From the NCBI GenBank assembly GCA_051362555.1, contig CM120647.1, positions 19,940,651 through 20,004,650 of the forward strand: 64,000 nucleotides of DNA, read 5' to 3'. The notes beneath the pieces are model-generated. The model was not told where the DNA came from. It searched no databases and saw nothing but the letters and a program-made list of their open reading frames with translations. A program made the position numbers and the translations under genes. Shown piece by piece: positions 17,174-64,000 of the stretch. The stretch comes from Lingula anatina (lineage: Eukaryota; Animalia; Brachiopoda). The stretch's first letter is position 1. Each line of letters opens with the position of its first letter.

Positions 17174-17174
17174 G

Positions 17175-22239: not shown

Positions 22240-22345
22240 TTATTGGTTACCGCACATTGCGCTAATTAAAGACTGAGTAAACAACTAATGGGTGCATGCG
22301 TTTAGTGGTCTGAACTGTGATTGGTCAGTTTACGTCATCTCTATT
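22240..22345 (+). promoter_or_regulatory. Candidate further internal promoter (two inverted CCAAT boxes plus CRE-like site); duplicate at 41075-41180
   Basis: ATTGG twice and TTACGTCA (22330-22337). Confidence 0.3.
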
Positions 22346-22758: not shown

Positions 22759-22790
<32 letters not shown>

Positions 22791-26755: not shown

Positions 26756-26796
<41 letters not shown>

Positions 26797-27247: not shown

Positions 27248-27382
27248 AGTCCTGGTAGTAACAATATTCACCACCAGAGGTCCCAGAAGTTAAATGGTCT
27301 GTCAAGATACCCCACCCAGCTCACCATTACTAACACAAAGTCCAGTAAGACCTCCAGTGGAAAGAGCCATGCCTATCAGGAT
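27248..27382 (+). CDS. Duplicated DYRK4 135-bp phase 0-0 exon, copy 1
   Basis: Identical to 46083-46217 with intact splice sites. Confidence 0.6.
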
Positions 27383-27778
27383 GTAAGTAGGAATACACTG
27401 ACTCTTGGTATATAGCAGTGGCTGATGAGAATTGGTTTAAGCTATTAAATGAGATTTGTATAAGTTTTTTTTTTTTTTTTTTTTTTTTAATAATATTTTG
27501 TCAAATTTTATCATTTCTGTTCTTTGGAATCCATATTAAATTATTTTAATCCTTTTTAAGTTTATTTTTCTAATACTAATGGCAGACAATCATTTTAGGC
27601 CCATTTTAAAAGTTTTTTTTTTTTTTTCATAAATGGCTATTTCCTACTAGATATAACACTTTAACCTCTTAATGATTTATTTCAACCTGATAGTAGAAAA
27701 AGAAAATCAGCAGATTCATTTCACCTTTACCCAGACTGCTATTTGGGAATAAAAGTTGTTGTCAGATGTTTACTTACT

Positions 27779-34000: not shown

Positions 34001-35963
34001 GCTCAACTCCTCTTTTTAGACCTCTATAAAAACAATTCATTGGTGGGTTTCTTTGGGTTAGTATACATCTTTTAACCCTTGTCAAAACATTGCCACCTGT
34101 GCTGTGAGCACCTATTGCCCTTAGTAAATAACAACAGTGAAGTCAAAGAAAAAACTAGATGGTCTGATAAAGGTGTATGGGTGGAGAGGACTAAATTTGG
34201 AGTTTAGGCTTAACAAACAGGTTGCCATCTTAATTTGGGGCTTAAGCATTGTCGTCTAAATTTGAGGCTTTGCCTTTTATTAATTTATTTATATGTGGAT
34301 ATCACCTGTTTAAGAGCAAAAATCAATTTCTAATAAGGTAGTTATAGGTCATTTTGCTGTTATATCACCCTCTGTATGGATGAATGAATCATTAGTTGAT
34401 TAACTTAAAGAATCAGTCAAGAGCTTCGCCAATTTGTTCTTGTAATTTTAGCAACTGTTAGTTAAAGGCAAAGAGTTTTGGTGGTTACAATTGTTATTAT
34501 AGTATGTATTCATGTAGCAGTATGAAAATGTGTTATTTAATCTGACTAGTATTAACATGATGATCATATATATAAGCAGTCATTAAAACAGAAATGAAGT
34601 GTGGGAGATTACTTTTTTTTTCTTTTAAGTTTACTATTTATTACAAAAAGAACCAGAGACATGAAAATATAGTTATAATCTCTTCACCCTATCATTTTTG
34701 TTTCAAAATATAGTACTACGTGAAATTTAATAAAAATGTACTTTCCCTGTTCATGTAGCAGCAAATGTTAATTACCAAAATGTAATATACAACAAAAGAT
34801 CATTCATACAACAATAGGACATTAACAAGAAAAAAATTAATTTGCAAGTAATCAGAGTAGAATAAAACAGGCTTCTTTGCAAATGAGCTATGAATCTTTC
34901 CTTAATATAGTGGATACAATTTTTAAAATGCACACTTGAGTCCCTTGCCCCGAGGTGGAGCTGAGTGGTCTAACAATAGTGTCTGAGAACCACAAGCTTT
35001 AAGTGGAGATCGTGGGGATCACCATTGCATAAAATTAGGCTAATGCTGTATGCTAACATTTAGCATGAATGAACACACGCCTCGAGAAAAAACCTTCCAT
35101 TGAACATTCGTCTGCATGAATGCTCGCGATTGCAACGTGCGTTCTGCTCTTACCCCCTCTGTGACATTGAGTGCGTTTTCCATTCAACCAATCATGGCTC
35201 TATATTCATGGTTGATCAGAGCCGCAACAAAGCCCTGGTTTTATTCATGTGTGAATTCAATATTTTGATTATGCCATTTGAAAACCTATCCATTATACCA
35301 TTTGCCAGGCCCATTGAAAGATAAAGCATGGCCATTATATGTATGGTCAATACTAGCCATGAATTATCCATAGGCAGTGGCATAATAGAGTAGCAATGAG
35401 TGCCCTGAGTCTGTATGAATGGATGGGGAAGCTAAATGGCAAAACTAACAAGTGGTTCAATGGAAAAGTTGAAAATAGCTTGATACATTTTAAAGAGTTC
35501 CGCTACAGGTATTGGTTGCATGTAGTGTGTGGGGGTACTGTATTTGTATACGGAGGTAACCATCTGGAAAATAGCCTCAAAGGCGGCTTACGGCTCAGCA
35601 AAGACAGCTTCTGGCCCAGCAGTCAGGTGGGCAGTGATTGGAGAACGGGACTCGCTTAGCAACTCTCGCTTTACAACGAGCGTGAAGTCACGTCTTTGCG
35701 ACGTACAAGGGGTTCTGTCACACATACACACTCGCAACTAAACTTTTGAGGAACGCGATTTCAGTATGTCGCAATGACATCTGGGTGTGTGAACTTGGGA
35801 TTTTCTCCCTGGCCCAGTGAGGAAGATTCAGTCAAACACACCATAAGAGGAGGAACCACTTCTCACTATGTAGGAGTAGCTGGATAGGATAGTTATCCCC
35901 TCACATATATATATATATATATATCACATCACTTCACACCTGTCACGAATCACAACTTCACAG

Positions 35964-36008
35964 ATGTCGAATGTCTACTGGGGAGTTAGTTTTCCTAAGA
36001 GATCACAG
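35964..36008 (+). CDS. Candidate alternative first coding exon of DYRK4 (MSNVYWGVSFPKRSQ), copy 2
   Basis: Identical to 17129-17173 at offset 18835. Confidence 0.5.
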
Positions 36009-38104
36009 GTATGTCTCCTGATACAACTAGTTACATTGTATATATGTCTCCTGATACAACTTGTTACATTGTATATGCTGTATGTCTCCAGGTGATATTG
36101 TATTGATTTGTATCAGGTTGTATTGGTAAAGGTGTTTATTAGTATCTACAGTATCAAGTTATATCAATTAATGTAAAACATAATGTATCATATTGTATCA
36201 GTAATGACATACAGTTCATATTGTTTTGTATCAACATTGGCAATATTTGGTGTTATTGGTACATTGTTGCTTTACGTTTGAATATGGATTTGGCATTACA
36301 ATTATCGTTTGATAAATTATGACAGTACAAACATTTATGTATTTAAATGTGAGGAAAAGGTAAAAAATGACGCATGTCCATTTAGCTGTTGAACCATGAT
36401 AGAATGTACCGCCAGTCAAAAGTTGTTATAATGTCTTTCATACAGTTTTCAAGGCATAATGAGATAAATCCAAAAAGCATAGTGTATGTCAAAGTAAATT
36501 GGACATTTGTGTTGTGGAATGGTTCTGAAACTATTTTTACAAATCTAAATTCATTCAGAGATAGCATTAGGGATATTTGAGTGCCAATGTAAGCCTAACT
36601 TGAGGCTAAGTGTGGCAAAGGTATATTCATACACTAATAGTCCTTTTTCCCCAAAAAAATTTTTTTGCATATCTAAATAGAGACTAAAGAATACAGTATA
36701 ATGCCCACAAGCACTGGAGAGAGTCAGGGAGCCCAGATTTATCAAGTAATTATTACTTTACAGTATTATTGAAAAGAAGTCAGTCAGTTGTCTTATTATC
36801 TGTCAGTTATCAGACTTCGCCGCCCAACTGCATTTGAAAGGTGAGGGTAGCGAGGGCCTAAGTCATGGTTACAAAAGTCATGAACTGTCTTCCAGTGAGA
36901 TTAACAAAACAGAATTGCATTGAAGGCAACGCAATGCTTACGGACAGGTCATTGTAAAGGGGGTTATGATGGTTACAAAAGTCATGAACTGTCTTCCAGT
37001 GAGATTAACAAAACAGAAGTACATTGAAGGCAATGCCATGCTTACGGACAGGTCATTGTAAAGGGGGTTATCTGGACTGAAGTGGCAGTTGTCATTGACC
37101 ACTTCCATGAAATGTAGTGTGAAATTGCGTTGGGCAGCCCCTTTTTTTCTTGTTCTTGAGTGGATAGTTTTTGCTTTAAAGTTAATGCGAGATGTGATGT
37201 CTGTAGCTGGTGGCTGTTTTTGTTAAATTTCTCGTCAGGTGTAATTTGATGATTTGATTTGTTGCCTCATGGAGTGGAAAATATTTTGAGCTGTTTTATG
37301 TTGAAGAGCATTTGTAGATCCATTTTCTTTTATACTAACATTTGAGAAAAAAAAGTAACAAGTGTCAATTTTTGGATAAGATGCCTTTAGGTTTGATGTA
37401 TAATTTTGATTAAGTTCCAGACTTTGTTAACAAGATGTAAAATGTTTATTGCAATCTGTATCAATTGGGGCACAGTTGTGCAGCTTTGTTATAGCACATA
37501 ATACATGAGTACATAGTTATGATTGAATTGCAGGAACAAAACCTGCCATGTTGAATTAATTGAGATGAGTGCACAATGATTTTGAATTGATTTGGCAAGT
37601 TTAATTGTCACGCTGAGTATTGATATTTAAAAAATGCTTTCCTTTCCTAGACATGAGTTCACTCTTTTTTTTTTTATTATTTCTTTATTGTTATGATGAT
37701 GAATTTTTAAATTTATTCATTTTGCTTTTTTCCATTTATATATTATTTAGTTATGTATTTTTTGCATATTTTCTTCATTTCCCAGCTCCTACCATTGATA
37801 TCCGATACAAAGTAGCGTAAATAATGAAAAAGTTTGCCCCAAAAACAAATAAAGCTAGTTGCAATGCTATAAATAAACCTAAGCCACATTCAGACATGTT
37901 TCAGGTTAAGACCGGTTTATGGCCAGATCAAGTTTATAGATTATTGGTAGAAATCTGTGGAGTAATGGGGTCTCTGTGCACTCCTAATTGACAAATGCTT
38001 GCGGCCAAATTAACCCAGTTACTATTGAACAAATGTTCATGATTGTCTAAAAAAAAACCTTACAAAAGAGAAATGGAACCTGCCTTCACAGATATTGACA
38101 GTAA

Positions 38105-38362
38105 GGCTTCATTCACATGCAATGTCTATTTTCTAAATTCTATTTTCTATTCGCGGTATGTCTTATGATCACGGTCTGTGCCCTGAATATCCCGCGGCAT
38201 AATTACTGGCAGTGCGAGCCAGTTACTATAAGTTACTATAAGTAACTGGCTCGCGCTGCCAGTAATTACGTGGCGGGATATTCAGGGCACAGACCGTGAT
38301 CATAAGATAGCGCGTATAGAAAATAGATTTTTAGAAAATAGACATTCCATGTGAACGAAGCC
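38105..38362. mobile_element. PIF/Harbinger-like palindromic MITE, copy 2 (inside the duplication)
   Basis: Identical to 19270-19527. Confidence 0.88.
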
Positions 38363-41300
38363 TAAAACTGTACATCATTTCTCGTATTGACTGATGCACG
38401 AATCGCTGATTAAAAACCAAGAGTGGTGAGAAGTAAGTCACGATTATTGCCTGCAGCTGGTATGGAGGATGCTCTTGTTGGTTATGCTTTAATGGCAGTT
38501 GGGAAATTGGGAATTGAAGAGAGAGGATGGGTCAAGTGATCAAGTGATGTTTTATATTGCTATGAAACATTAAAAATATAGCAGTACTGGAACAGGTTTC
38601 TAATTTTTGGAAATTTAAATTATTTCAGTGGAGTAAGACAAAGGATACTGAATCATCTTAATAACATTAAGTAGCATTCTTTTTTTTTTTTTTTTTTTTT
38701 TTTCTTTTAAGCAAAAAATTAAAGTTTTAACCATTTTCATTTTATACAGAAACATATATTTTGTCATTTAAAAGAGGAAATTATTTTTATTCAGTGGTGT
38801 CTTGCAGCTTTTATTTCTCTTTTAGAAAATTAAGATAAACATGATATTTTTTGCGTGAATTTTTATGTTATTTCAAAACTATTTGTTAGCTAATCTTTTT
38901 TCGACAAATCTATAAATTTGTCTATATCAGGATAATTTTTAATCCCCTAAAAAGTTATGCAGTCATAATTCAGTTCTAAGCAGTTGGGATTTTTTCTGCA
39001 GTTAAATTTAAAATATAACAGAATATATATTTTAAGATATTAAAATTTAAACATCCAGTAAGACAAGAACTGCCGGCACGTTGTTGTTTGGTCAGTGAAC
39101 AGTGATCTACAAACAGCGGTCAGAAGGTGCAGTTATTTCACAGAAAGAGGTCTTTAAGGTCACAGTTAAATATAATTGTTACTATGCACTTGGTCGAATA
39201 CCAGTGTTTGATGTGACATAATAGACTACTATATACGCTAGTATTTCAACGGCATATATACAAGGCTGGGCTGCAGTGCAGTTCTTCTGTGACATAATCT
39301 CCCGCAACATGTTTCATATTTTAATAGTCTGTTACAACATACTACACTGTTTCATGTTTTATGAGTAAGCAAGGGTTGTGGTTGCGGTATGGTATGGTGC
39401 TATAGTTTAACAACAAGGAACAATGGGTTTGTTTCATATTTAAAACCATACAGAGGATTTGGTTACAGTAAACTACGAGTGTGATGTAATTCGAACAAAA
39501 GTATCACCCAGTATGCCTCAATACCAGATGATTATACACAGCTATTATGTAAGCTGTACATGTTTTATAACACCAGGAAGACGCACCTTAGCATTCATAA
39601 ACATTTAAGAAAACACAGTTCACTTCTCAATGCAAATTTAGCCAAATAATCAACATGTTGTAATCTGTATTAAGCGAGTGGAGGTGTGTAAGAATTTTTG
39701 CATTAAGGAGAGGCAGGGTGTCTTTGTAAATGTAATGTTAACGTCAAAGCAGGTGTTTAATTAGGGTCGGCCGAGGGGTCAGTCCGTAGAGAAGCTATGG
39801 CATGGTACATCTTCATGGAGTGTGAAACTAGCTTTTGTTGCTTTCTGCACCAATGGTTGCATTGTAGTTTCTGCCAAAGAATTAAAGCGGTATTTCTCAC
39901 AATGAAGTGAAGATTATTACCGAGATGCTTCTGATAAACTTGGATTTCTTTTTAAATGACTTGGTTGCACAGCAGGTTGATGGTGTTAAGTAGAAATCTG
40001 TTTGTGTTTGCCCTTGGAAATGAAGGGCTAATGTGGCCCTTTAAAAGATAAAATGATTTAAAATTGGGGATCGGTTATAAGGGCTTCAGGTGCCTGGGAT
40101 GAATCAGTATGAGTCACTTAAATGAGCCTGTTTTATTCTGAAGAGGAAGCTTCTTATCATTTAGACAAATAGATATTATTTGTACATTATTTGTACATTT
40201 TAGTAGACTTTACAATTCAAATACATTCTGGCTTGAATTTGATCAAAACTTTTGGTCTTAAAGCTTAGACTAACTTTTATCATTTGATATCTTTGGTCAG
40301 ACTGATACTTGATGATGCAAAAAAAAGATGTCTGTAAAAGAGCAATGATCTCAGTTCATCACATCCTGACACAATGGTGATGTCACACCTGATGCAACTG
40401 TTTTAAAATAAGAGAGCTTTAAATTAAGAAGTTTTAATTTTTGTGAGGCAAGTTTTTGGGCCTGTGAATTAGGACAGCTCTGGAAAACTCTATCAGGAAG
40501 GAGGACAAAAAAGACCTAGAGGTAGACAAAGAAGTGCATTTTTCAACCAAAGTGTTGACTGAAGCTAGTTCACCTAATTTTGTAATTATAACTCTTCACA
40601 CAAAAATATATAGCATCTATAAGTAAGATTCTGGCCTAGGAGGGACCCAGTGCTGTATTTTAAAGGTATTAGTACTGCCCATATCCCTCTACTTGGTGTC
40701 CTAAGATTACATCAGTGCCCCTTGGGTCACATCCCATTCATATGTAACTCTTCATAGAAATATATAATAGCAACACCAACCTCCCAACCCAACCTGAGTC
40801 ACTCAACCTACTGAATAAAGACAGAGACTTCTTTTCAGACTGGCTCTCAGCTGTGAATGCATGTTGACAACGTGCACGCGACGGCACAGCGTGCTGTCCT
40901 TGGGGTGTTTATTTTGATAAGGTGTCTACCTTGTTGTAACAGTAGCAAAGGTCTTCCCTTGCCTCAGGTGTTTGAATTCTCCCCTAGCCTTCCGCCATTG
41001 TATCTGCACCTTGTGTGTTGAAGTATTAACAAAAAAAGCAATATGTTACACTGTAAATGAACTACGATTTGACTTTATTGGTTACCGCACATTGCGCTAA
41101 TTAAAGACTGAGTAAACAACTAATGGGTGCATGCGTTTAGTGGTCTGAACTGTGATTGGTCAGTTTACGTCATCTCTATTCGGTGGATTTCAGTACCTTT
41201 GTCTGGTAGTCTAGGCTTGGGTGAAAGAGCAAGACTTTAGAGTAGCAATTTTTGTAAAGTGTTTTGTACTGTAGGGGGTATACCAAGTATGCTGTCCCAA

Positions 41301-41593
41301 ATAACAAGCTTTGCTTCTTTTGGAGTAACTTCATATGACTTAAAGATTTTGAGCACCAGAAGTTTGCTTGGTTAAGTTTCACTAAAGAAACTTTAAACCA
41401 AAAGTTAGCCTTTATACCACACTGTTTTTATTTTATTATTTAATTTTTAATTTTTTATTTTTTAGTAAATCCACATTATTATGTGGCCATTGTTTCTGGT
41501 AATGGCTTCATGAATCTGTGAATTTTCTATTCTAGACTAGTGTATTTGTTAAGTAACAGTTTCTCTGCCCCCTCCCCAACACACACACATGCA

Positions 41594-41625
<32 letters not shown>

Positions 41626-44600
41626 GCCTTTGCCATTCCCAACCAGGCTGCATGTAATACCAGCCCAGAGCACTTATTGTGGATGAACCAAGTAAGGAGA
41701 AAATACACAGGAACCAAACCAGCCAATCATCTTAGTTGAAGATGAGCATTGTTTATCCGCCTTAGAGGTTAAGATAAAAGCAGATTATTTATTTACCTTG
41801 CAAGGTTTTGGTCTCAATTTCTTGTTTTTAAACCCAAAGGGATGTGTATTCATAGCACTTGCTGTGGGCAAGAATTTGTTCAATTTTCCTCTTACCTGAT
41901 GAGGTTTTGACCATGCATTTCCCTCACAAATTGGACAGGAATTTGCCTTACTTGCTATTTACCCAGCAAGTGTTTGATTAGGATTTCTTTAGTTTAGGAT
42001 TTTACATTTCATACTAATTGGACAAGAATTTGACCAGGTAGATCAGATAACCCACATTTTGAGGTGGCATTTGTACTTTACATGGGGACTAGAATTGGTA
42101 AATGTAGGATACTAGTTCTTCATGTTTTTTTTTTTTTTTTTTTTAATCCAAACCAGTAATTCTTCTTTCCACTTCAATAAACATCCCTAGGGCAAAACAA
42201 ATGGTTGTCCTTGTTCTGAACTCTCTGTACATTAACTAGGAATTGTTTTGTAAGTCTTGAAGGTTTAGATGGAAATGCATGTTAAGTAAAACACCTCAGA
42301 TGTCTGTGTTTTTTTTAAGGTTCTTGTATTGGTAGATGTGGTTTGTAATTATTCAGAATGGTAAAATAAAACTTTTTTCTTTGGCATCAGCTTTCTATGT
42401 CCTGTAGCATTTTTCCATAGAGTATTTGGATGCCTGAAAAGAAAATGGAATTATCAAGAAATTCTTTGCACAATTATCTCTATATTTATTTATAAATAAT
42501 GTTTATTATCATCATTATTATGTCATTTATTTTATTTTAATTTAATTATTATTATTATTACTTTTTTTTTTTTTTTTTTTGCCAATAAAGGTATTACGTG
42601 CCAGTAACAAGTATACAGGGTAGTGTGCTTGGTCACCATGACAACAAACTATTTCTGTATCAAACTGTGAACAAGGTGCTGATGTCAGCATTAATGCTGT
42701 AATCTCGTCATTCTGCAGGGCATTAATTCCCATTTTCTCAGAACACGTTGCAAATTTAGCCATCAACATATTAATCTTCAGTGCAAACATAACAATTTAT
42801 CTTCTAGATGTTGTTAATGACTGTTCTTTATGGGCTGTTACACAACAGAGCCAAGAGTGTTTTCCCAGAATTTGGGTAAAGGTGATCATATTAACCATGA
42901 GTCAACCTATTTTTTTTTTAATCTTTGTTTAGTTTCTGAAGTGCACTTGTTACTGTGAGCCTGTATTTTGTACTCAGGCAGATGTTTTTAACATCAATGC
43001 AAAGTTTCTGGGTTACCTGCTCATGGAGAAAAGTTGTAAAGAAAACCTTGTTGGCTACTTGGATAAAAGAGAAAAAAAAATTGAGAAAGAAATTAGTTTG
43101 GGAGTTCTTTGTGCCTAAATAGTAATACTGTTAATAGATTTCAATTAGTTGTTTTTTCTTTGACTGATTAATTGATTTATGTTGCTATCATTCACTCTTG
43201 TAAGAATTGGAAGATGATTCTTTGCAAGGAAGTTATTAGGAAGTATTAAATGTCATCACAGGAGATACTAGTAAAACCTCTGAAAGAATCTTCTTGGGCT
43301 ATATTTAGCTTTTAATTCAGATTTGAAGATTGGCATGATATTCACTATCAGATCAGCTTTAGGCCTGTAGCCAGCAGCTTCATAGGAGAGTGGAGTTTTT
43401 TTTTTTTTTTTTTTTAAGTGGACGTTTGTACCATGATACTGACTAATACCTGGTAGGACCTAGATCAAATTTTGATTCAGAGCAGATCTTTTCACAGCCA
43501 AAAGGATGATGTTTCAGAAACCCCGTCTTCCAAAAATTATGAGGATAAAGAATTCCCTACTGGCTTCCTGTGTGATAGGTGGATAGGTTATAGGGTAGAA
43601 CTGATAATGGCTGGTATTTCAAGGTGTCTGGGCTGAAAAGGGCAAATATCTGTGATATATGCAACAGCCATATCAACAATGTTACAAAGATGCAATCCCG
43701 TAACCAGCAATATTAAAAAAGTGGACCTTTTACCATGAAACCTACATGTACCTTCATAAAATTTTACCCAGAGGGGACCTTTTCCTGACAAAAAGAGGGG
43801 GTTCTTTGAAACTCCGAAATTCCCGAACCCCACCCCTGGCTACCGGCCATGAAGATGTATGAATCAGGGTATTATTAGCAAACGAGTGAAAACACTGTAG
43901 TTTTTAATACAGTAGTACTATATAGTCAGTGCAGTGTTGACGTCAAATGGCTAGGGTATTTTAGACATTAGGTGGGAGTGATAGATTTGAAAACAAGACT
44001 GGTTTAGGTGATAGTAATTGGACTGCTCATGGGAGTTTTCCCTTGCTATATTTTATCAATGAATATACAGAACATAACTGAGAGTAAGTGATTTTGAATT
44101 GTTGAAATCAGTATGACATTTTTTTTATAAAGAAGGGATGAAGGTGAAATAAAGAACGGAAAACCCCAAGAAGTGAATTTGTTAGAATAAATAAATAAAA
44201 ATTGGTAACAAGTTTCTTAGAGGATGTGCCACAGACATTTCCTCTTGAAATGAAATGCATTCCAGTAAAAACAGTATTAGTTGTAAGTTCCCTGCTTAGG
44301 AGCAATAATGGCAACATGGATACACAAAGGAAGGAGGTGGAATACAATTTGTATCTATCTGGCTGGCAATACAGTACACCATGACTCTGGATCTTTAACA
44401 TGTGGAAGTAAGTAAGACTGGCAGCCAGGTGAGATACCCAGGTTTTCATAGATCTACTTAAGTTGATCTGTTCTCACAGCATACAAGTTCATTTGGTAGA
44501 GGTGATGGAGTTATAATCAGACATGAGCTTTTCAATTCCGATGGCTTCTTCTGAGATTTTTTTTTTTTTTTTTACCAGGCTCATGTCTGTATAATCAGAA

Positions 44601-45590
44601 CTTTGAAACATTCAGTTCTTTTTCTTTTTTTATTTTAATATGACATTTTATTTTGTGATTTTTAATGTTTTTCTTTAAATTCTTCCCCTATGTCACCTCT
44701 GGTACCTTCCCAGTTTTGTAGTTTACTGGAGACTCTCTGTAGTTCTCAGTATATATTTCTCCCAGTAGAGGTGAGTTAATCAGGGCCTGGAAACTCAGGG
44801 CACATTTGACCCAAAGGGAAGTAACATAAAACTGATGAGTGCAGCATATTACTGGGTAAAGTGCCAAGGATCACTGCAAACACTCCCGGTAATTCTGAAA
44901 ATCCTGGTAATTGGGTTGGAATGTTCTGGACCAGCTTGTCGTATCTCTGAGGTAGCTGAAAGTGATACAGGTACAGGTGCGTGTGTAGACTCAAGGAAAT
45001 GTTATGAATTACTCATCAACTTCCGGAAACCACAAGTCATTTTTGTTTTTTTGTTGTTTTTATTTTTTCTCACTCTCCTGCTTGATGAGGTGTCATCCAT
45101 GTGGGCAGAGAGCTATAAAAAGGCAAGCGAGTGAGTTTCTTTCATACGCTCAACAGAGAGCAAGAGAGAGAGAGAGCGAGAAACAGAGAGAGACAAGATA
45201 ACACAGATTACTGGAGTATTTATACAGCGTAGGGGTACATAAATCTGAAAATGTTGATGTTTTTTATGCTGATGATGAGAGGGTATAGGGCCCAAGGAAA
45301 ACCGGAGAAAAAGAGAAAAAGTCATTGCAAAAGATCAAAGGCAGCTTACCACAGAAAGAATAAGTTGCACACAAAGCCTGGGAAAACACAAGAAGGCAGG
45401 GCAATAGATTCCAGAAGTATGTGTCATTATGTACATGTATGTGTAGGAGCTTTCTGTGTTTGTCAGATACCTGTATATGTTTTTATTTACCATGAGTGAA
45501 GTGATTAAAATGTAAGTGATCAATTTCATCTATAGAATATGCACAGGTGCATGTTATTAATATATGGAATTGTACAGGGGTTTGTGTGAT

Positions 45591-45631
<41 letters not shown>

Positions 45632-46082
45632 AAAAAACATTTGTGTGTTTCTTTATACAATGAGTCCATGAGGTGGTCATTTACTTCTGTGGATTGTACA
45701 TGAATGAATAATACATGTATAAGTACACAAAATCTATATGTGAGGATTTTTTAATTTCTGAATGCTTCTAGGATACTTGTATGTTTTTATTTGCTGCTAG
45801 ATGACTTGTATGCTGAATACTGCTAGGATACTCTATATTTTATTTACTGCTAGGTGACTATCATCCTTTTAGCCAATTTCATCTGTACATAAGTTTATGT
45901 TATTTTATATTTTTGCCAGGAACTTCCGCAAGACATCTTCCGATTTTTCTCATCAGCTTTTTTTTTCAGAGGAGAAAATAATTCAGTATAACCTACATCT
46001 ACATCTGTTTAAGAGTATCATCCACAACATTAATTAAATGTTTTTGCATTTTATTTCATTCCTACATGTTTCTCTCCTGCAG

Positions 46083-51242
<5,160 letters not shown>

Positions 51243-54200: not shown

Positions 54201-55489
54201 ACAGTATTTTTATCAAGTTTTAGTGTTATATACATATTCCATGTTACTTATAAATGACCTCTCTATAGAAAGGGCAAAGGTGAATTAGATTTTCTACAGG
54301 CATACATATTCAAAGTTGACCTGGGTGTAAAGTTGACCCAAAGATAGGTCCATTTTCACTAAAATACTTAAGACCAGTAATGGTGGTTTTAATCAGATCA
54401 AAGTTAATGCCCATATCCCTGTAGCTGTCTTTAATATTAGCTGCTTTTTGTTTTCATATTATGTTTTATTTCATTTTTATTAAATTGTTATTATTTTTAC
54501 TTTATAACAAAAAGGACCAAAAGTTTAACTTGAATTTTTTTTATTGTATTTATATTTATTTAATTCCATTATTCACAAACCAAGCACAGTAGTTTATATC
54601 ATTCTAATAGACAACTACTGAATTATCTTTGGTCACAGAATACTATATGTTTTGGTACGTTGATAAAGACCAACAGTCTGTTGTGAGATCTGTGAAACTG
54701 GACTTATGGTAATGTTTACTGTAATTTGCATCTGGGAAACAAAGTGTATACAGGTTTGCCCCAACACAATATATTTAGTAAATATCCGTCCACCTATAAC
54801 AGTATAAGCAGATGATTATAGAAATATTTGAAGAATTATCTATTTACATATAAAATGGTTTACACAAACGATAAAGATAGTTCCGTCCCATAGTTTTACA
54901 TTGGTGGTACAAATTCTAATAATTACAATTATACATGTATAATTACTCATCACATGTATTTCAAACTCTTCTTATGTCAGACCATTTATCCTTTCAGTCA
55001 TTGCATGTTTAGTGTTCACAATAGTAAAATATAGGATTATAAACTCAAGTGCTGTATTTCTTTTTATTATTATTATTTATTCTTTTATAAGTCCAAATAA
55101 AATGTTTTCAGTGTTGATCAAAAATTGTGAGTAGTAAATGTAATGGACTACCCCAATCCGTCCGTTTACTCTGAATGTCAACTTGCTTATGGTAATATTG
55201 TATATGTATATTGTATACAGTATTGTTATGTACGGGAAATGGTACATGCATTCCTGATGTTGTCATAATGTCACGTGACTCAACACAGTATGGGCGTGGC
55301 AGTTATAAGACAATAAATCTGACAAAAATATTTACTCCTTCCCACTGTCTTGTTATTAAAAAATGGCTGTTTTAATAAAAAAAAATTCTTTTTTATCAGT
55401 TCATCACAAGTATGCAAAAACTGAGAGCATCCAGCTGAACAAAAGTCAGTATTTTTCCAAGAACCAGTTAGTGCATTGGATATAGCTGT

Positions 55490-55625
55490 ACTGCAGCTTT
55501 CACCCAGCACCTGCTCCTTAAAACGTAGAGGCTCTGCGTGGTTTCTCTGTGCAGATATACTACGAGCTAATTCATGTATTGTGACTGCTGTCTCTTTGTG
55601 GATGTGGAATTCTCCCAGTACAGCG
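55490..55625 (-). pseudogene. Decayed TPR repeat relic downstream of the stop codon
   Basis: A different frame reads VLGEFHIHKETAVTIHELARSISAQRNHAEPLRFKEQVLGESCSTAI, the same repeat with indels. Confidence 0.75.
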
Positions 55626-55640
55626 TATCTACTTCTACAT

Positions 55641-58600
55641 CTATAAACAAATACAGCACGCTCTGGGTTTACAATCTGTATCATTTATTGAGCTAGATCT
55701 TGTATCTTGTTGCGACTTTCTCCGAGCCAGAGCTGAATTTCCCATCTGACTCATTTTGTGACGTACGTTGGGCAGCACAATGGGTGTATAGCCACTTTCA
55801 CCCAAAAGTGGTACATCTATGCGTAGAGCTCGGAGTTCTTCTGCATAGTTTTCTTGTGCACGAGTTAATTCATGTTCTGTGACTGCTGTCTGTTCATGGC
55901 ATTCTCCCAGTATCTTTTCCTTCATAGCCAGAGCTCTCCTGAGGACGTCCATAGCACCGGCTGTATTGCCAATCTTTATCATTTCAGTACCTATGTTGTG
56001 TAGTGTATTGGCTGTACTGTTACTTTCACCCAGCACTTGTTCCTTTATACAAAGAGCTCTTTGATGTGTCCTGAGGGCCTCTTCATGGTTTGCCTGTGCA
56101 GATATGCCACGAGCCAATTCATGTATTGTGCCTGCTGTATCTTCATGGTATTCTCCCAGTATCTTCTCCTTCATAGCCAAAGCTCTCTTAAAGGCATCCA
56201 CAGCACCGTCTACATTGCCCATCTCCATCATTTCATGACCTATATTATTTAGAGTAGTAGCTGTTTCTTGACTCTCACCCAACACTTGTTCCTTAATACA
56301 AAGAGCTCTCTGGTATGTAATAAGAGCCTCTGCGTGGTTTCCCTGTGCAGATATGGCACGAGCCAATTCATGTATTGTGCCTGCTGTATCTTCATGGTAT
56401 TCTCCCAGTATCTTCTCCTTCATAGCCAAAGCTCTCTTAAAGGCATCCACAGCTTCGTCTACATTGCCCATCTCCATCATTCCATGACCTATATTATTTA
56501 GAGTAGTAGCTGTTTCTTGACTCTCAACCAACACTTGTTCCTTTATACAAAGAGCTCTTTGATATGTCCTGAGGGCCTCTTCATGGTTACCCTGTGCAGA
56601 TATGGCACGAGCTAGTTCATGTATTGTGCCTGCTGTATCTTCATGGTATTCTCCCAGTATCTTCTCCTTCATAGCCAAAGCTCTCTTAAAGGCATCCACA
56701 GCACCGTCTACATTGCCCATCTCCATCATTTCATGACCTATATTATTTAGAGTAGTAGCTGTTTCTTGACTCTCACCCAACACTTGTTCCTTAATACAAA
56801 GAGCTCTCTGGTATGTAATAAGAGCCTCTGCGTGGTTTCCCTGTGCAGATATGGCACAAGCCAATTCATGTATTGTGCCTGCTGTATCTTCATGGTATTC
56901 TCCCAGTATCTTCTCCTTCATAGCCAAAGCTCTCTTAAAGGCATCCACAGCACCGTCTGTATTGCCTGTCTCTATCATTTCATGACCTATGTTGTGCAGC
57001 GTAACGGCTGTATTAAGACTTTCACCCAGCACTTGTTCCTCTATACGTAGAGCTCTTTGATATGTCCTGAGGGCCTCTTCATGGTTTCCCTGTGTAGATA
57101 AGGCACGAGCTAACTCGTTTAGTGTGGTTGCTGTCTGTTCATCATATTCTCCCAGTATCAACTCACTCATAGCCAAAGCTGTCCTGAAAACATCCACAGC
57201 ACCTTCTGCATTGCCTAGCTCAATCATTACCTGCCCCATGCAGTTGAGTGTACAGGCCATGCTGCGACTTTCACCCAATACTTGTTCCTTTATGTGTACA
57301 GCTCTTTTGTATGTACTGAGGGCCTCTGCGTAGTTTGCCTGTGCAGCTAGTGCATGGGCTAGTTCATGTATTGTGACTGCTGTGCTTTCGTGATATTCTC
57401 CCAGTATCTTCTGCTTCATAACCAAAGCTTGCTTGAGGACATCCTCAGCACCTTTTGCATTGCCCAGCTTTATCATTTCCTGACCAATGCAGTGCAGAGT
57501 ACTTGCTGTGCTGCGGCTTTCACCCATCACTTGCTCCTTTATACGTAGAGCTCTCTGGTATGTACTGCGGGCCTCTTCATGGTTTCCCTGTGCAGATATG
57601 GCACGAGCCAATTCATGTATTGCGCCTGCTGTATCTTCATGGTATTCTCCCAGTATCTTCTCCTTCATAGTCAAAGCTCTCTTAAAGGCATCCACAGCAC
57701 CGTTTGTATTGCCCGTCTCTATCATTTCATGACCTATGTTGTGCAGCGTAGCGGCTGTATTACGACTTTCACCCAGCACTTGTTCCTCTATACGTAGAGC
57801 TCTTTGGTATGTGTCGAGGGCCTCTTCATGGTTTCCCTGTGCAGATAAGGCACGAGCTAACTCGTTTAGTGTGGTTGCTGTCTGTTCATCATATTCTCCC
57901 AGTATCAACTCACTCATAGCCAAAGCTGTCCTGAAAACATCCACAGCACCTTCTGCATTGCCTAGCTCAATCATTACCTGCCCCATGCAGTTGAGTGTAC
58001 AGGCCATGCTGCGACTTTCACCCAATACTTGTTCCTTTATGTGTACAGCTCTTTTGTATGTACTGAGGGCCTCTGCGTAGTTTGCCTGTGCAGCTAGTGC
58101 ATGGGCTAGTTCATGTATTGTGACTGCTGTGCTTTCGTGATATTCTCCCAGTATCTTCTGCTTCATAACCAAAGCTTGCTTGAGGACATCCTCAGCACCT
58201 TTTGCATTGCCCAGCTTTATCATTTCCTGACCAATGCAGTGCAGAGTACTTGCTGTGCTGCGGCTTTCACCCATCACTTGCTCCTTTATACGTAGAGCTC
58301 TCTGGTATGTACTGCGGGCCTCTTCATGATTTCCCTGTGCAGATATGGCACGAGCCAATTCATGTATTGCGCCTGCTGTATCTCCATGGTATTCTCCCAG
58401 TATCTTCTCCTTCATAGCCAAAGCTCTCTTAAAGGCATCCACAGCACCGTTTGTATTGCCCGTCTCTATCATTTCATGACCTATGTTGTGCAGCGTAGCG
58501 GCTGTATTACGACTTTCACCCAGCACTTGTTCCTCTATACGTAGAGCTCTTTGGTATGTGTCGAGGGCCTCTTCATGGTTTCCCTGTGCAGATAAGGCAC

Positions 58601-61600
58601 GAGCTAACTCGTTTAGTGTGATTGCTGTCTGTTCATCATATTCTCCCAGTATCAACTCACTCATAGCCAAAGCTGTCCTGAAAACATCCACAGCACCTTC
58701 TGCATTGCCTAGCTCAATCATTACCTGCCCCATGCAGTTGAGTGTACAGGCCGTGCTGCGACTTTCACCCAATACTTGTTCCTTTATATGTACAGCTCTT
58801 TTGTATGTACTGAGGGCCTCTGCGTAGTTTGCCTGTGAAGCTAGTGCATGGGCTAGTTCATGTATTGTGACTGCTGTGCTTTCGTGATATTCTCCCAGTA
58901 TCTTCTGCTTCATAACCAAAGCTTGCTTGAGGACATCCTCAGCACCTTTTGCATTGCCCAGCTCTATCATTTCCTGACCAATGCAGTGCAGAGTACTTGC
59001 TGTGCTGCGGCTTTCACCCATCACTTGCTCCTTTATACGAAGAGCTCTCTGGTATGTACTGAGGGCCTCTTCATGGTTTCCCTGTGCAGATATGGCACGA
59101 GCCAATTCATGTATTGCGCCTGCTGTATCTTCATGGTATTCTCCCAGTATCTTCTCCTTCATAGCCAAAGCTCTCTTAAAGGCATCCACAGCACCGTTTG
59201 TATTGCCCGTCTCTATCATTTCATGACCTATGTTGTGCAGCATAACGGCTGTATTACGACTTTCACCCAGCACTTGTTCCTCTATACGTAGAGCTCTTTG
59301 GTATGTGTCGAGGGCCTCTTCATGGTTTCCCTGTGCAGATAAGGCACGAGCTAATTCATGTAGTGTGGTCGCTGTCTGTTGATCATATTCTCCCAGTATC
59401 AACTCACTCATAGCCAAAGCTGACCTGAAAACATCCACAGCACCTTCTGCATCGCCTAGCACTATCATTACCTGCCCCATGCAGTTGAGTGTACAGGCCG
59501 TGCTGCGACTTTCACCCAACACTTGTTCCTTTATGTGTACAGCTCTTTGGTATGAACTGAGGGCCTCTGCGTAGTTTGCCTGTGCAGCTAGTGCATGGGC
59601 TAGTTCATGTATTGTGACTGCTGTGCTTTCGTGATATTCTCCCAGTATCTTCTGCTTCATAACCAAAGCTTGCTTGAGGACATCCTCAGCACCTTTTGCA
59701 TTGCCCAGCTCTATCATTTCCTGACCAATGCAGTGCAGAGTACTTGCTGTGCTGCGGCTTTCACCCATCACTTGCTCCTTTATATGTAGAGCTCTTTGGT
59801 ATGTACTAAGAGCCTCTGCGTGGTTTCCCTGTGCAGATATGGCACGAGCTAATCCGTGAATTGTTACTGCTGTCTGTTCGTGGGATTCTCCAATTATCTT
59901 TTTCTTCATAGAAAGAGCTCTAGAGAAGAAATCCATAGCATCATCTGCATTGCCCATCTCTAGCATTTCCTGGCCAATACAGTGCATTGTTACGGCTGTA
60001 CTGCAACTTTCATCCAGCACCTGCTTCTTAATACAAAGAGCTCTCTGGTATGTAATAAGAGCCTCTGCGTGGTTTCCTTGTGCAGATATGGCACGAGCCA
60101 ATTCATGTATTGTGACTGCTGTATCTTCATGGTATTCTCCCAGTATCTTCTCCTTCATAGCCAAAGCTCTCTTAAAGGCATCCACAGCTTCGTCTACATT
60201 GCCCATCTCCATCATTTCATGACCTATATTATTTAGAGTAGTAGCTGTTTCTTGACTCTCACCCAACACTTGTTCCTTTATACAAAGAGCTCTTTGATAT
60301 GTCCTGAGGGCCTCTTCATGGTTTCCCTGTGCAGACATGGCACGAGCTAGTTCATGTATCGTAGTTACTGTGCTTTCATGGTATTCTGTCAGCAAATTCT
60401 CCTGCATAGCCAAAGTTCTCTTAATGACATCCACAGCATCGTCTGCATTGTCTAGCTCTATCATTTCCTGACCCATGCAGAGCAGTGTACTTGCTGTACT
60501 GCAACATTTACCCAGCACTTGCTCCTTTAAATGTAGAGCTCTCTGGAATGTACCGAGAGCCTCTGCGTGGTTTCCTTGTGCACATTTGGCACGAGCTAAT
60601 TCATGTATTGTGGCTACTGTGCTTTTATGGAATTCTCCCAGTATCTTCTCCTTCATAGCCATAGCTCTCCTGAAGACATCTACAGCACCGTCTGCATTGT
60701 CCATCTCTATCATTTCCTGTCCAATGCAGTTCAGGGTAATGGCTGTACTAAGACTTTCACCCAGACCTTTCTCCTTTATATGTAGGGCTCTCTGGTATGT
60801 GCTTAGGGCCTCTTCATGGTTTCCCTGTGCAGATATGGCACGAGCTAATTCATGTATTGTGACTGCTGTGCTTCCATGGTATTCCCCCAGTATCTTCTCC
60901 TTCATAGCCACAGCTCTCATGAGGACATCTACAGCACCGTCTGCATTGCCCATCTCTATCATTTCCTGTCCAATGCAGTTCAGTGTAATGGCTGTGCTAA
61001 GGCTATCACCCAACACTTTGTCTTCTATATGTAGGGCTCTCTGGTATGTGCTTAGGGCCTCTTCATGGTTTCCCTGTGCAGATATGGCACGCGCTAATTC
61101 ATGTATTGTGGCTGCTGTGCTTCCATGGTATTCCCCCAGTATCTTCTCCTTCATAGCCACAGCTCTCATTAGGACATCCACAGCACCGTCTGTATTGCCC
61201 ATTTCTATCATTTCAGTACCTATGTTGTGCAGTGCACTGGCTGTGTTGCGACTTTCACCCAACACTTGTTCTTCTACACGTAAAACTCTTTGGTACGTTT
61301 TAAGGGCCTCTTCATGGTTTCCCTGTGCAGATTTGGCACGAGCTAATTCATGTATTGTGACTGCTGTCTGTTCATGGTATTCTCCCAGTATCTTCACCTT
61401 CATAGCCAGAGCTCTCATTAGGACATCCACAGCACTGTCTGTATTGCCCAGCTCTATCATTTCGTGTCCAATGCAGTTCAGGGTAATGGCTGTACTGAGT
61501 CTATCACCTAACACTTGTTCTTCTATACATAGAGCTCTTTGGTAAGTTTTTAGGGCCTCTTCATGGTTTCCCTGTGCAGATATGGCACGAGCTAATTCAT

Positions 61601-62663
61601 GTATTGTGACTGCTGTCTGTTCATGGTATTCTCCCAGTATCTTTTCATTCATAGCCAGACTTCTCCTGAGGACGTCCACAGCACCGTCTGCATTGTCCAT
61701 CTCTATCATTTCCTGTCCAATGCAGTTCAGTGTAATGGCTGTGCTAAGGCTATCACCCAACACTTTGTCTTCTATATGTAGAGCTCTTTGGTAAGTTTTT
61801 AGGGCCTCTTCATGGTTTCCCTGGGCAGATATGGCACGAGCTAATTTATGTATTGTTGCTGCTGTGCTTTCGTTGTATTCTCCCAGTAACTTTTCCTCCA
61901 TAGCAAGAGCTCTCCTGAGGGCATCTTCAGCACTTTCTGCATTACCCAACTCTATCATTTCAATTCCCATGTTGTATAGTGTACTGGCTGTATTTCGACT
62001 TTCACCGAATACTTTTTCCATAATACTACGGGCTCTCTGGTATGTACTGAGGGCCTCTGCGTGGTTTCCCTGTGCAGATATGGCTCGAGCTAATTCATGT
62101 ATTGTGACTGCTGTATGTTCGTCACATTCTCCCCGTAACTTCTCCTTCATTGCCAGAGCTCTCCTGAGGACATCCACAGCAGCGTCTGCACAACCAAGTT
62201 CTAGCATTTCAAGACCTATGAAGAGTAGTGTGGTTGCTGTACTTTTATTTTCACCCAGGACTTGCTCTTTTACATGAAGTGCCCTTTTAAGTGTACTGAG
62301 GGCTTCTGCGTGGTTTCCTTGTTCAGACATGGCACGTGCGAGCAGATGCATTGTTTCTGCTGTCTCTATGTGGCATTCCCCAAGGAACTTCAATCTGATA
62401 TCCAGCGTGTTTTTCAGGATATTGATAGCACCCCCTGCGTCACCTAAAACTACCAAACAAGACGCCATGCCTTCTAGTAGGTCGATCATGTGAGCATTAT
62501 ATGTCTTCGCCAATGACAAATATGTAGCTTCCTTCAGAACATGAGAATCTGCAGCTATGGCACTACTCACAGTTCCAAACTGTTTATCACAAAGAGCTTC
62601 GAGACAGGTGAGTGCATGGGCGTATTCACGTATTCGAAGGAGTGTTTTTGCGAGTAGTTCCAT
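55641..62663 (-). CDS. Giant TPR array (~54 repeats of the 41/42-aa kinesin-light-chain/nephrocystin-3-like type) with C-terminal CaaX; sensor part of the NB-ARC-TPR receptor
   Basis: 2340-aa uninterrupted ORF; alternating TAxTIHELARAISAQGNHxEAL and TAxTLxxIGxEMxExGNxxGAVD repeats; ends DCKPRACCICL*. Confidence 0.9.
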   Translation of the reverse strand: MELLAKTLLRIREYAHALTCLEALCDKQFGTVSSAIAADSHVLKEATYLSLAKTYNAHMIDLLEGMASCLVVLGDAGGAINILKNTLDIRLKFLGECHIETAETMHLLARAMSEQGNHAEALSTLKRALHVKEQVLGENKSTATTLLFIGLEMLELGCADAAVDVLRRALAMKEKLRGECDEHTAVTIHELARAISAQGNHAEALSTYQRARSIMEKVFGESRNTASTLYNMGIEMIELGNAESAEDALRRALAMEEKLLGEYNESTAATIHKLARAISAQGNHEEALKTYQRALHIEDKVLGDSLSTAITLNCIGQEMIEMDNADGAVDVLRRSLAMNEKILGEYHEQTAVTIHELARAISAQGNHEEALKTYQRALCIEEQVLGDRLSTAITLNCIGHEMIELGNTDSAVDVLMRALAMKVKILGEYHEQTAVTIHELARAKSAQGNHEEALKTYQRVLRVEEQVLGESRNTASALHNIGTEMIEMGNTDGAVDVLMRAVAMKEKILGEYHGSTAATIHELARAISAQGNHEEALSTYQRALHIEDKVLGDSLSTAITLNCIGQEMIEMGNADGAVDVLMRAVAMKEKILGEYHGSTAVTIHELARAISAQGNHEEALSTYQRALHIKEKGLGESLSTAITLNCIGQEMIEMDNADGAVDVFRRAMAMKEKILGEFHKSTVATIHELARAKCAQGNHAEALGTFQRALHLKEQVLGKCCSTASTLLCMGQEMIELDNADDAVDVIKRTLAMQENLLTEYHESTVTTIHELARAMSAQGNHEEALRTYQRALCIKEQVLGESQETATTLNNIGHEMMEMGNVDEAVDAFKRALAMKEKILGEYHEDTAVTIHELARAISAQGNHAEALITYQRALCIKKQVLDESCSTAVTMHCIGQEMLEMGNADDAMDFFSRALSMKKKIIGESHEQTAVTIHGLARAISAQGNHAEALSTYQRALHIKEQVMGESRSTASTLHCIGQEMIELGNAKGAEDVLKQALVMKQKILGEYHESTAVTIHELAHALAAQANYAEALSSYQRAVHIKEQVLGESRSTACTLNCMGQVMIVLGDAEGAVDVFRSALAMSELILGEYDQQTATTLHELARALSAQGNHEEALDTYQRALRIEEQVLGESRNTAVMLHNIGHEMIETGNTNGAVDAFKRALAMKEKILGEYHEDTAGAIHELARAISAQGNHEEALSTYQRALRIKEQVMGESRSTASTLHCIGQEMIELGNAKGAEDVLKQALVMKQKILGEYHESTAVTIHELAHALASQANYAEALSTYKRAVHIKEQVLGESRSTACTLNCMGQVMIELGNAEGAVDVFRTALAMSELILGEYDEQTAITLNELARALSAQGNHEEALDTYQRALRIEEQVLGESRNTAATLHNIGHEMIETGNTNGAVDAFKRALAMKEKILGEYHGDTAGAIHELARAISAQGNHEEARSTYQRALRIKEQVMGESRSTASTLHCIGQEMIKLGNAKGAEDVLKQALVMKQKILGEYHESTAVTIHELAHALAAQANYAEALSTYKRAVHIKEQVLGESRSMACTLNCMGQVMIELGNAEGAVDVFRTALAMSELILGEYDEQTATTLNELARALSAQGNHEEALDTYQRALRIEEQVLGESRNTAATLHNIGHEMIETGNTNGAVDAFKRALTMKEKILGEYHEDTAGAIHELARAISAQGNHEEARSTYQRALRIKEQVMGESRSTASTLHCIGQEMIKLGNAKGAEDVLKQALVMKQKILGEYHESTAVTIHELAHALAAQANYAEALSTYKRAVHIKEQVLGESRSMACTLNCMGQVMIELGNAEGAVDVFRTALAMSELILGEYDEQTATTLNELARALSTQGNHEEALRTYQRALRIEEQVLGESLNTAVTLHNIGHEMIETGNTDGAVDAFKRALAMKEKILGEYHEDTAGTIHELACAISAQGNHAEALITYQRALCIKEQVLGESQETATTLNNIGHEMMEMGNVDGAVDAFKRALAMKEKILGEYHEDTAGTIHELARAISAQGNHEEALRTYQRALCIKEQVLVESQETATTLNNIGHGMMEMGNVDEAVDAFKRALAMKEKILGEYHEDTAGTIHELARAISAQGNHAEALITYQRALCIKEQVLGESQETATTLNNIGHEMMEMGNVDGAVDAFKRALAMKEKILGEYHEDTAGTIHELARGISAQANHEEALRTHQRALCIKEQVLGESNSTANTLHNIGTEMIKIGNTAGAMDVLRRALAMKEKILGECHEQTAVTEHELTRAQENYAEELRALRIDVPLLGESGYTPIVLPNVRHKMSQMGNSALARRKSQQDTRSSSINDTDCKPRACCICL
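56800..59790 (-). repeat. Four near-identical 747-bp higher-order repeats (6 TPRs each) inside the TPR ORF; boundaries approximate
   Basis: Antisense shadow ORFs recur at 57366, 58113, 58860 and 59607 (step 747). The protein repeats the HCIGQE/NCMGQV/HNIGHE triplet four times. Confidence 0.9.
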
Positions 62664-63960
62664 GGTGGGGCAAAATTCTTCTTTAAGTCATTCGACAATG
62701 CACTGAAATAGTGTATGCAATTTACATAATTATCCCTCTTTTTTTCAAAATGTGTGAATGTGTTGCTTTCCTTGACAAGTCTTGTGATGCTGGGCTCCAT
62801 ATATCTTATGAAATGTGTCATGAATCTATTTCTGTCTTCTTGTGAAGTTTTGTACTCGGCAAAGTCCCGAATTACACTGTGCATCACAAAACACTCCCTT
62901 GCTTTATCAGCTGTCAACAAAGACTTGTCGCACAGCACACCAATAAAGTGTAGGTGTTTTAATTTCGTAACTGTTTTCAGTTCTTTGCTGACCAGCTGAA
63001 ACGCTTCGTCAGCGGTGAAGTACAATGGAAAAAGTGACAACAATAGATACAGTGTCCTCTCAGTTTGGCACAGACGGTTATATGTAAGGCTAATGCAAGC
63101 GTAGGGATCAAAAGGTTCAGCACTCAAAGTGAATAAGGACCTATCATTGGTAACACGTTCGTTAAGGAGATCGACAGCGTTGCAACCCTGACGCAGTAGG
63201 AAGCCAAAAAGGTGAAGCAATAGTGCCATAAACCCACATTTCATTGCTAGCTTGTCGCCTTCAACGCTATTCAAAGATGGCGAATACCAGCGTAACAAGG
63301 ACAATGATGCATCTTTTGATAAAGATTGAAGCTGATGTAATTCAACCTTTAAATTGGGTAAATGTATTGTGTCACGTGATGTACACAAAACATACGCGTT
63401 TCTGCAGTTCATGTTGATGTATCCCAAAAACGATTTCAATTGTTCATGGTTTTCACTACTTAGGATAGTCTCACAAGTGTCAAGAATAACCAAAATCTTC
63501 TTGCCGTATCCTGATATTTCCTGAAAGACTTTTCTGTTTAACTCGCTCAATCGTTTATTTTCGGTTTCAACGGCAGGTGCTATTTGCAACAATCCCCCAT
63601 CCTTGTGCTGCAGCCCTTTGTCATAATTTATGATCAAATCTGTGCTTGTAAAATCTGTACTTGACTTTAAAGCAATTAGAAGGCATTTTGCAATATCTTC
63701 CTGGTCAGACACGTACCTCATGTCAGCCATCACAGAACGGATGCCCCATCTCGAGACAAATTCATGACCAATTTCGGTTGCCAAAGCGGTCTTTCCTTGT
63801 CCCCCAAACGCCTGAATAATGACCAGCCGACATCCATTCATGAGAAACGCTTGGCAGATTTTTTCTACGTCTTCCTCACGACCTTCAAAGCACTCCGGCC
63901 GCTCTGGAATAGAGGAATCCTCGAGGATGGATGCTGAAAGGACGTTGGACAATTGATGTG
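62567..63960 (-). CDS. STAND NTPase (NB-ARC type) region of an NLR-like NB-ARC-TPR receptor; 5' exon(s) outside the window
   Basis: FEGREED motif, Walker A AFGGQGKT, Walker B ILVILDTCE, sensor-1-like VLCTSR, GLPL-like CGFMALLL, SLTYNRL, MHD-like VMHSVIRDFA. Acceptor (ta)n-tag| at 63961/63960, phase 1, so the track's TTG start is probably not the real start. Confidence 0.85.
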
Positions 63961-64000
63961 CTATATATATATATATATATATACAATAAAAGAAAAAGAA

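Follow-up and report, generated by a model that had tools for sequence, protein, structure and literature searches.

NLR-like receptors in which tetratricopeptide repeats (TPRs) serve as the sensor have been described in several animal lineages. The NLR-like genes of placozoans mostly carry an NB-ARC domain (39 of 42), associated with CARD or death-like domains and with WD40 repeats or TPRs (PMC6321704). TPRs are found in place of WD40 repeats in Apaf-1 homologues of amphioxus, sea urchin or Nematostella (PMC2246300) and in the NACHT/NB-ARC genes of Acropora (PMC4083563), and the TPR tracts of other coral genes exceed 3000 amino acids (PMC12314368). Fungal TPR NLRs present high internal conservation with variation of the concave face (PMC4986451), alleles broken by a frameshift or a stop occur commonly in fungal NLRs, and a 2026 survey reports that high internal conservation occurs in animal NLRs as well (both PMC13449251). 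Here, we analyzed a 64,000-nt stretch of DNA of the brachiopod Lingula anatina (assembly GCA_051362555.1, contig CM120647.1, positions 19,940,651 to 20,004,650; hereafter the window, whose coordinates are used throughout), which contains an NLR-like gene with an NB-ARC-type NTPase and a long TPR array on its minus strand (55641–63960).

A preliminary description of this gene had contrasted it with canonical animal NLRs of the NACHT-LRR type (LRR: leucine-rich repeat). This contrast overstates its novelty, as genes combining a death-fold domain, NB-ARC and TPRs were described in placozoans, corals, amphioxus and Nematostella. The receptor design is already known in animals, and the copy in the window is out of frame. 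The exon starts at 63960 on the minus strand, behind a T-rich acceptor. The frame of the NTPase stops at 62567 and the frame of the TPR array starts at 62687. The two differ in register by one base, the array being read in the −1 frame with respect to the NTPase, and the only stretch in which both frames are open is 62687–62570. The locus had been presented as a single exon of about 8.3 kb encoding a single receptor. The TPR array is indeed intronless, with an open frame of 2348 codons (55641–62687), but in genomic DNA the NTPase and the TPR sensor are not encoded as one polypeptide. We propose that this locus belongs to a brachiopod-type CARD-NB-ARC-TPR family of predicted innate-immune sensors and is likely a paralogue that was broken recently.

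The shift was located with a profile of four relatives (P0001–P0003 and P0005), against which the frame-switched sequence was scored with an X inserted at the break. These relatives and a fifth one, P0127, correspond respectively to the L. anatina loci LOC106167851, LOC10616786x, LOC106165459, LOC106162306 and LOC106159931. Profile scores reached 87.6–92.1 bits when the switch was placed at 62689–62656, relative to 73.0 bits without a switch and about 70 bits for later switches. The tail in the TPR frame scored above shuffled sequences against P0003 (p 0.0005) and P0002 (p 0.039) and marginally so against P0001 (p 0.054), and the tail in the NTPase frame was no better than shuffles against all four relatives (p 0.39–0.91). 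P0127, which lies outside the profile, aligns gap-free across the break, and all five Lingula relatives are annotated in one frame through the junction.

The same letters were recovered from two DNA sequencing runs. One contig of run X1 (62056–63953) and one of run X2 (62482–63635) match the window with 0 other letters, 0 gaps and no indel listed, at depths of 51 and 61, respectively. The shift is therefore not an assembly slip. The contigs of X2 end at GATC sites, as in proximity-ligation short reads, which suggests that X2 represents a second technology, perhaps applied to the same animal as X1. The assembly may derive from X1, X2 belongs to the same study and possibly to the same animal, and contigs drop rare variants. 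The shift zone contains no long homopolymer. The shift is real DNA, a statement which covers two runs of possibly one animal and does not imply fixation in the species. The DNA runs X3 and X13–X17 contain next to none of the window's words, although this does not prove absence. The RNA runs X4 and X7 yielded 0 reads on 61880–63990 in about 6/100 of each run, where the presence of the organism was not established.

We further analyzed the structure and history of the TPR array. It comprises about 54 TPRs, in agreement with the ~54 TPRs and ~27 pairs initially reported: 26 full TPR pairs of 83 amino acids in exact 249-nt register, a degenerate 27th pair and one extra TPR in front. These pairs had also been presented as nearly identical, which proved to be too strong. 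The mean nucleotide identity of the 26 units is 80.0% (range 68.3–100), only 16 of the 325 unit pairs share at least 95% identity (36 share at least 85%), and near-identity is confined to a young block (units 12–25 and 9). Fifteen of the 26 units have a partner at 95% nucleotide identity or more, and 19 are matched by another unit with at least 85% amino-acid identity. Amino-acid identity is 74% among A-type repeats and 68% among B-type repeats, relative to 31% between the two types. The copies of the 747-nt block (units 11–22) differ at 10–39 sites per 747 nt and the longest exact in-register match in the array spans 486 nt. Units 23 and 25 are 99% identical, and unit 24 is 95% identical to unit 9 (60126–60374), fifteen units away. 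At a lag of 249 amino acids, internal identity is 100% over 100 amino acids (threshold: at least 85% over 100 amino acids).

A test of the pairwise homoplasy index (PHI) type rejected tree-like descent on all 26 units and on the 17 units with less than 95% identity (p 0.001 in both cases), a signal to which clustered mutation could contribute. Consistent with mosaicism, the quarters of one unit have different nearest neighbours. These comparisons show repeat shuffling within this single array. The ratio of nonsynonymous to synonymous substitution rates (dN/dS) is 0.26–0.44 for older unit pairs versus 0.73 for the 16 youngest pairs (the pairs are not independent). TPR positions 2, 5, 6, 9, 12 and 13, which we take, following the TPR numbering convention, to form the concave face, are enriched in replacements (p 0.037 for all 12 sites). 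The enrichment is also found for the six groove sites of the B repeats relative to other non-core sites (p 0.007), and groove variation is enriched at B-type positions 2, 5, 6 and 9. The strategy of repeat shuffling that the preliminary description attributed to an immune or allorecognition receptor thus stands as regards the array, with block duplications, mosaic units and enriched groove variation; the immune or allorecognition role is a prediction, and the length of the array may vary between individuals. We also observed a consensus donor hexamer in each copy of one unit type of the three-unit block (57161, 57908, 58655 and 59402 on the minus strand), as well as weak in-frame acceptors in many B repeats. 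Splice forms that skip repeats are conceivable from these sites.

The closest relatives of the gene are three L. anatina proteins (P0001–P0003; 46–49% identity). They present the layout CARD (residues 13–91), NTPase and TPR, P0005 shares this layout, and a CARD is present in 4 of the 4 closest full-length relatives. The window exon aligns from residue 100–103 of the Lingula relatives, and the upstream exon likely encodes a CARD because this point falls right after the CARD of the relatives. The effector had been placed on one or more exons upstream of the window; an exon start at 63960 agrees with this, and the relatives suggest that the effector would be a CARD. We reconstructed a tree from 148 of 153 sequences (5 were dropped as they lacked a 250-amino-acid domain match, and NPHP3 sequences were not included). 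The window sequence groups with P0001–P0003 with a support of 100 and with P0005 with a support of 94 in the Shimodaira-Hasegawa-like approximate likelihood-ratio test (SH-aLRT). The more distant named matches are other Lingula proteins, proteins of corals (Dendronephthya, Oculina and Paramuricea) and an Anaerolineae protein. A total of 643 representatives pass an E-value of 0.001 and only 3 pass 1e-30. A 36-row clade with Anaerolineae and JGI proteins falls in one weakly resolved group with Lingula sequences (support 91), from which the direction of transfer is unreadable.

Judging from the reads, the family is multicopy in this genome and paralogues exist, since each of the runs X1 and X2 contains five further records that follow the Walker A stretch before diverging, and since the summed depth on one TPR unit is 6805 versus 51 for unique sequence (X1). 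The proposal of an animal multigene family is therefore borne out, with the closest members carrying an N-terminal CARD. A search with the protein of the TPR frame gave P0001 as its first match along with 21 long but distant TPR proteins (23–34% identity), with no intact long-array orthologue among them. Relative to its Lingula relatives, the window gene shares an NTPase that is 46–49% identical, an unusual GxP motif and the 83-amino-acid double TPR unit (47–55% identity), and all fall in one clade. In contrast, the relatives have a single annotated frame and a CARD at the N-terminus (except P0127, whose N-terminal part is missing), and they present far shorter arrays (internal identity 0.53–0.70), a longer linker and a capping repeat. 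An internal identity of at least 85% over 100 amino acids was found in 2 of 152 proteins, P0100 and P0149. Both are NB-ARC-TPR proteins with near-perfect repeats of 41–42 amino acids that differ at few positions, and they share a clade with a protein of the coral Oculina; they represent intact-looking examples of the repeat-shuffling design. Finally, P0001 contains a C-terminal Nal1_C/peptidase S64-like (trypsin-like) domain behind its TPRs (residues 1624–1698), which is possibly an integrated protease effector or a fused gene model.

The motifs, the profiles and the modelled structure indicate that the NTPase is an NB-ARC rather than a NACHT domain, as initially described. Five motifs (Walker A, Walker B, sensor 1, GxP and MHD-like) are present in order. 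The site that had been called GLPL-like is a degenerate GxP without the Pro, and both this feature and the initial Ala of Walker A are common to the Lingula relatives. In the comparison of hidden Markov models proposed earlier, Pfam NB-ARC (PF00931) reaches an E-value of 5e-4 on the window NTPase (19.8 bits, below its cut-off of 23.5) and NACHT an E-value of 0.03 (14.6 bits relative to a cut-off of 26.7). The relative P0005 passes the PF00931 cut-off with 26.4 bits. The structure of the NTPase was modelled from an alignment of 100 sequences, namely the window and 99 of the 152 proteins found, with a predicted local distance difference test (pLDDT) score of 88.6. The best structural matches of the model are Apaf-1 (E 2.5e-13; template modelling (TM) score 0.61), PH0952 (E 1.1e-11), NRC1/2/3/4 and CED-4, and the profile search with the NTPase matched AfsR, PH0952, NRC4 and Apaf-1. 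No NACHT protein is among the structural or profile matches listed. A single-sequence search of the PDB gave no meaningful match.

Many substitutions have accumulated in the array without closing its frame, and the break is therefore probably young. Several observations weigh against a broken paralogue or limit what can be drawn from it. The array covers 6.5 kb without a stop or an indel, and 0 stops were found among 96 private substitutions when 2.7–3.8 were expected (neutral probability 0.02–0.07), which implies either that the break is recent or that the TPR frame is still in use. A consensus donor lies across the stop of the NTPase frame, a strong start context opens the TPR frame, and the in-frame allele was not seen in DNA run X1 or X2. 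The location of the shift receives no signal over shuffles when the TPR-frame tail is compared to P0005 (p 0.80), and the scores of P0127 for the two readings are only 159 versus 148. The CARD is itself predicted and would lie outside the window. For the groove sites of the B repeats, the proportion of replacing differences does not exceed that of silent ones (pN 0.32 versus pS 0.37), and positive selection at these sites is therefore not shown. Finally, the private changes of the young units are neutral-like (5 silent to 15 replacing), with some at otherwise invariant sites, but this ratio is weak evidence of decay because the old units are neutral-like too (21 silent to 55 replacing) and because new repeats are under relaxed constraint even in working genes (PMC5120217). 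For the 20 youngest changes, the stop test is without power (P 0.45–0.57).

Under the hypothesis of a recently broken paralogue, the TPR array would have grown by block duplication and exchange between units. By analogy with Apaf-1 and other STAND proteins (signal transduction ATPases with numerous domains), the TPR superhelix of intact members would hold the NB-ARC switch in its ADP state. The binding of a foreign or damage-linked protein to the TPR groove may then trigger nucleotide exchange and ring assembly, and the clustered CARDs would recruit a CARD caspase or adaptor. The number of repeats and the residues of the groove would change through unequal crossing-over and conversion between the 249-nt units, a mechanism whose benefit, like its operation, we infer. 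In the present copy, translation would end 39 codons after the shift, yielding at most a CARD-NB-ARC stub without a sensor.

Alternatively, the locus could work despite the shift, either through an intron that runs from the donor at 62570 to a cryptic acceptor of unit 1, so that a complete NTPase-TPR receptor would be recovered with a new linker, or by producing CARD-NB-ARC chains and TPR-only chains (start at 62663) that would assemble in trans. We consider this unlikely. It would agree with the fully open array, with its lack of stops and with the missing in-frame allele. The consensus donor spans the stop and stop-free in-frame joins exist (e.g., with acceptors 62164 and 62284); however, about 0.06 such hexamers are expected by chance in the 120-nt overlap, the acceptors 62284 and 62164 are weak (pyrimidine fraction of at most 0.59, in contrast to the T-rich acceptors found in this gene and for the last exon of the neighbour), and none of the 260 in-frame donor/acceptor pairs is strong at both ends. 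Similarly, the first ATG of the TPR frame is the only RCCATGG among its 94 in-frame ATGs, a context shared by 8 of the 2678 ATGs of the window, but it aligns by eye with an internal Met of P0001 and P0002, and both the donor and the ATG context were noticed post hoc. No split or short relative of 233–742 amino acids scored among 4603 candidates, although this is a weak test. A stronger version, in which the frame shift is a working switch between a sensor-less CARD-NB-ARC chain and, through the donor at 62570 or the start at 62663, a full receptor or a free 54-TPR sensor, appears more doubtful still. If true, this would represent an animal NLR that is split or gated by splicing and whose TPR array is reshuffled somatically or meiotically; it would take the place of the apoptosome in a lineage where Apaf-1 is reportedly lacking.

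It is very unlikely that the family represents a housekeeping STAND-TPR scaffold without immune function, such as an NPHP3 orthologue. Its function is a prediction only, and Pfam TPR_NPHP3 matches the array with 505 bits, above its cut-off of 100. However, this score is summed over 26 stretches and remains below those of the generic TPR_12 (1031) and TPR_10 (898) models, NPHP3_N does not match the window NTPase at an E-value of 0.1, and NACHT reaches only 0.03. Structure and profile point to an Apaf-1-like NB-ARC. In addition, the relatives carry a CARD and the family is multicopy and fast-changing. We give even less credit to programmed −1 ribosomal frameshifting, which would join the frames and set the ratio of stub to full receptor: the shift is indeed −1 and the zone contains two near-slippery heptamers (62687 and 62678), but a canonical slippery heptamer is absent among 5 candidates, the downstream folding is ordinary (13, 71 and 16 of 200 shuffles fold as well; z −0.4 to −1.5), and the one-frame annotation of the five relatives argues against it. 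A sequencing or assembly error in an intact receptor gene is the least credible explanation and is largely refuted by the X1 and X2 contigs, which give the letters of the window gap-free at depths of 51 and 61 from what looks, by its GATC breaks, like two technologies, even if both runs may derive from the animal of the assembly and contigs may hide rare variants.

We then compared the broken paralogue to described systems. As in the animal death-fold/NB-ARC/TPR proteins of Trichoplax, Hydra, Acropora, amphioxus and Nematostella, a CARD or death-like domain (a predicted CARD in the window gene) and NB-ARC are combined with TPRs instead of WD40 repeats or LRRs, and the family underwent lineage-specific expansion (PMC6321704, PMC4083563, PMC2246300); in contrast, repeat-level identity, higher-order repeats and shuffling are undescribed in the accessible parts of those papers. 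With fungal NLRs (Podospora Pa_2_10340, an NB-ARC/TPR protein, and HET-E; PMC4986451, PMC13449251), the window gene shares 85% internal identity over 100 amino acids, mosaic repeats, concave variation and broken alleles. It differs by its animal host, its predicted CARD effector, its alternating A/B repeats and its three-unit higher-order blocks. Moreover, length polymorphism, positive selection and allorecognition are shown in the fungus, whereas the window gene is known from the sequence of one array. Apaf-1/CED-4 and the archaeal STAND-TPR protein PH0952 are the top structural matches of the NTPase model, but identity is only 16–17% and the window gene has a TPR sensor instead of WD40 repeats.

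In the open literature, we found no paper on this brachiopod family or on shuffling TPR arrays in invertebrate receptors. The locus provides a fully assembled animal example of a fungal-type repeat-shuffling sensor with a readable duplication history. It also draws attention to a CARD-NB-ARC-TPR family that is still uncharacterised, in a group from which Apaf-1 is reported missing (Apaf-1 was not detected in L. anatina; PMC11463336). The intact paralogues present in the reads constitute better targets than this copy, which is mainly an illustration of how genes arise and die in a fast-evolving family. The features of the locus are listed in Table 1.

Table 1. Coordinates of the features of the NLR-like locus in the window.
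Feature	Positions	Strand	Basis
Intron 3' end (T-rich tract, TA repeat, AG acceptor)	63961..64000	-	Sequence
NB-ARC (AP-ATPase) STAND module: nucleotide-binding domain, helical domain, winged helix and following helices	62690..63960	-	Motifs, Pfam, model, profile
Walker A	63811-63788	-	Motif
Walker B	63496-63470	-	Motif
Sensor 1	63388-63374	-	Motif
Degenerate GxP motif, without Pro	63238-63221	-	Motif
MHD-like motif	62884-62870	-	Motif
Frame-shift zone, from NTPase frame to -1 frame	62656..62689	-	Four-relative profile, P0127 alignment, X1/X2 contigs
Tail of the NTPase frame past the shift (out of frame, about 39 codons); TGA at 62569-62567	62567..62686	-	Frame analysis
Earliest ATG in the TPR frame; start context strong, with A at -3 and G at +4	62661..62663	-	Sequence context
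Consensus splice-donor hexamer spanning the NTPase-frame stop (candidate only)	62565..62570	-	Sequence
Open TPR frame, 2348 codons, without intron, stop or indel	55641..62687	-	Pfam TPR_12 1031 bits, TPR_10 898 bits
26 full 249-nt units, each with an A-type (42 aa) and a B-type (41 aa) TPR	55893..62366	-	Array analysis
Higher-order repeat: four copies of the three-unit 747-nt block (units 11-22)	56889..59876	-	Block comparison
Units 23-25, young block of two-unit period	56142..56888	-	Unit identity
Degenerate unit 27 with deletions, non-repeat C-terminal tail, stop, then decayed out-of-frame repeat remnant	55450..55892	-

Several other features were observed in the neighbourhood of the gene. 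A multi-exon DYRK2-like kinase gene (47300–51242, plus strand) lies tail to tail with the NLR-like gene, and its last exon encodes a Lys/Glu-rich repeat. Upstream of the kinase exons, a direct duplication of 15.56 kb (12218–27778 and 31055–46613) presents 99.987% identity with 2 gap letters, and its copies are separated by a unique spacer of 3276 nt. This duplication is either very recent or an assembly artefact. Finally, the window contains a 430-nt inverted pair (3335–3765 and 6507–6935; 89% identity), with about 2.7 kb between its members, and an imperfect palindrome of 260 nt (19269–19528 and 38104–38363), both of which look like transposon ends or miniature elements.

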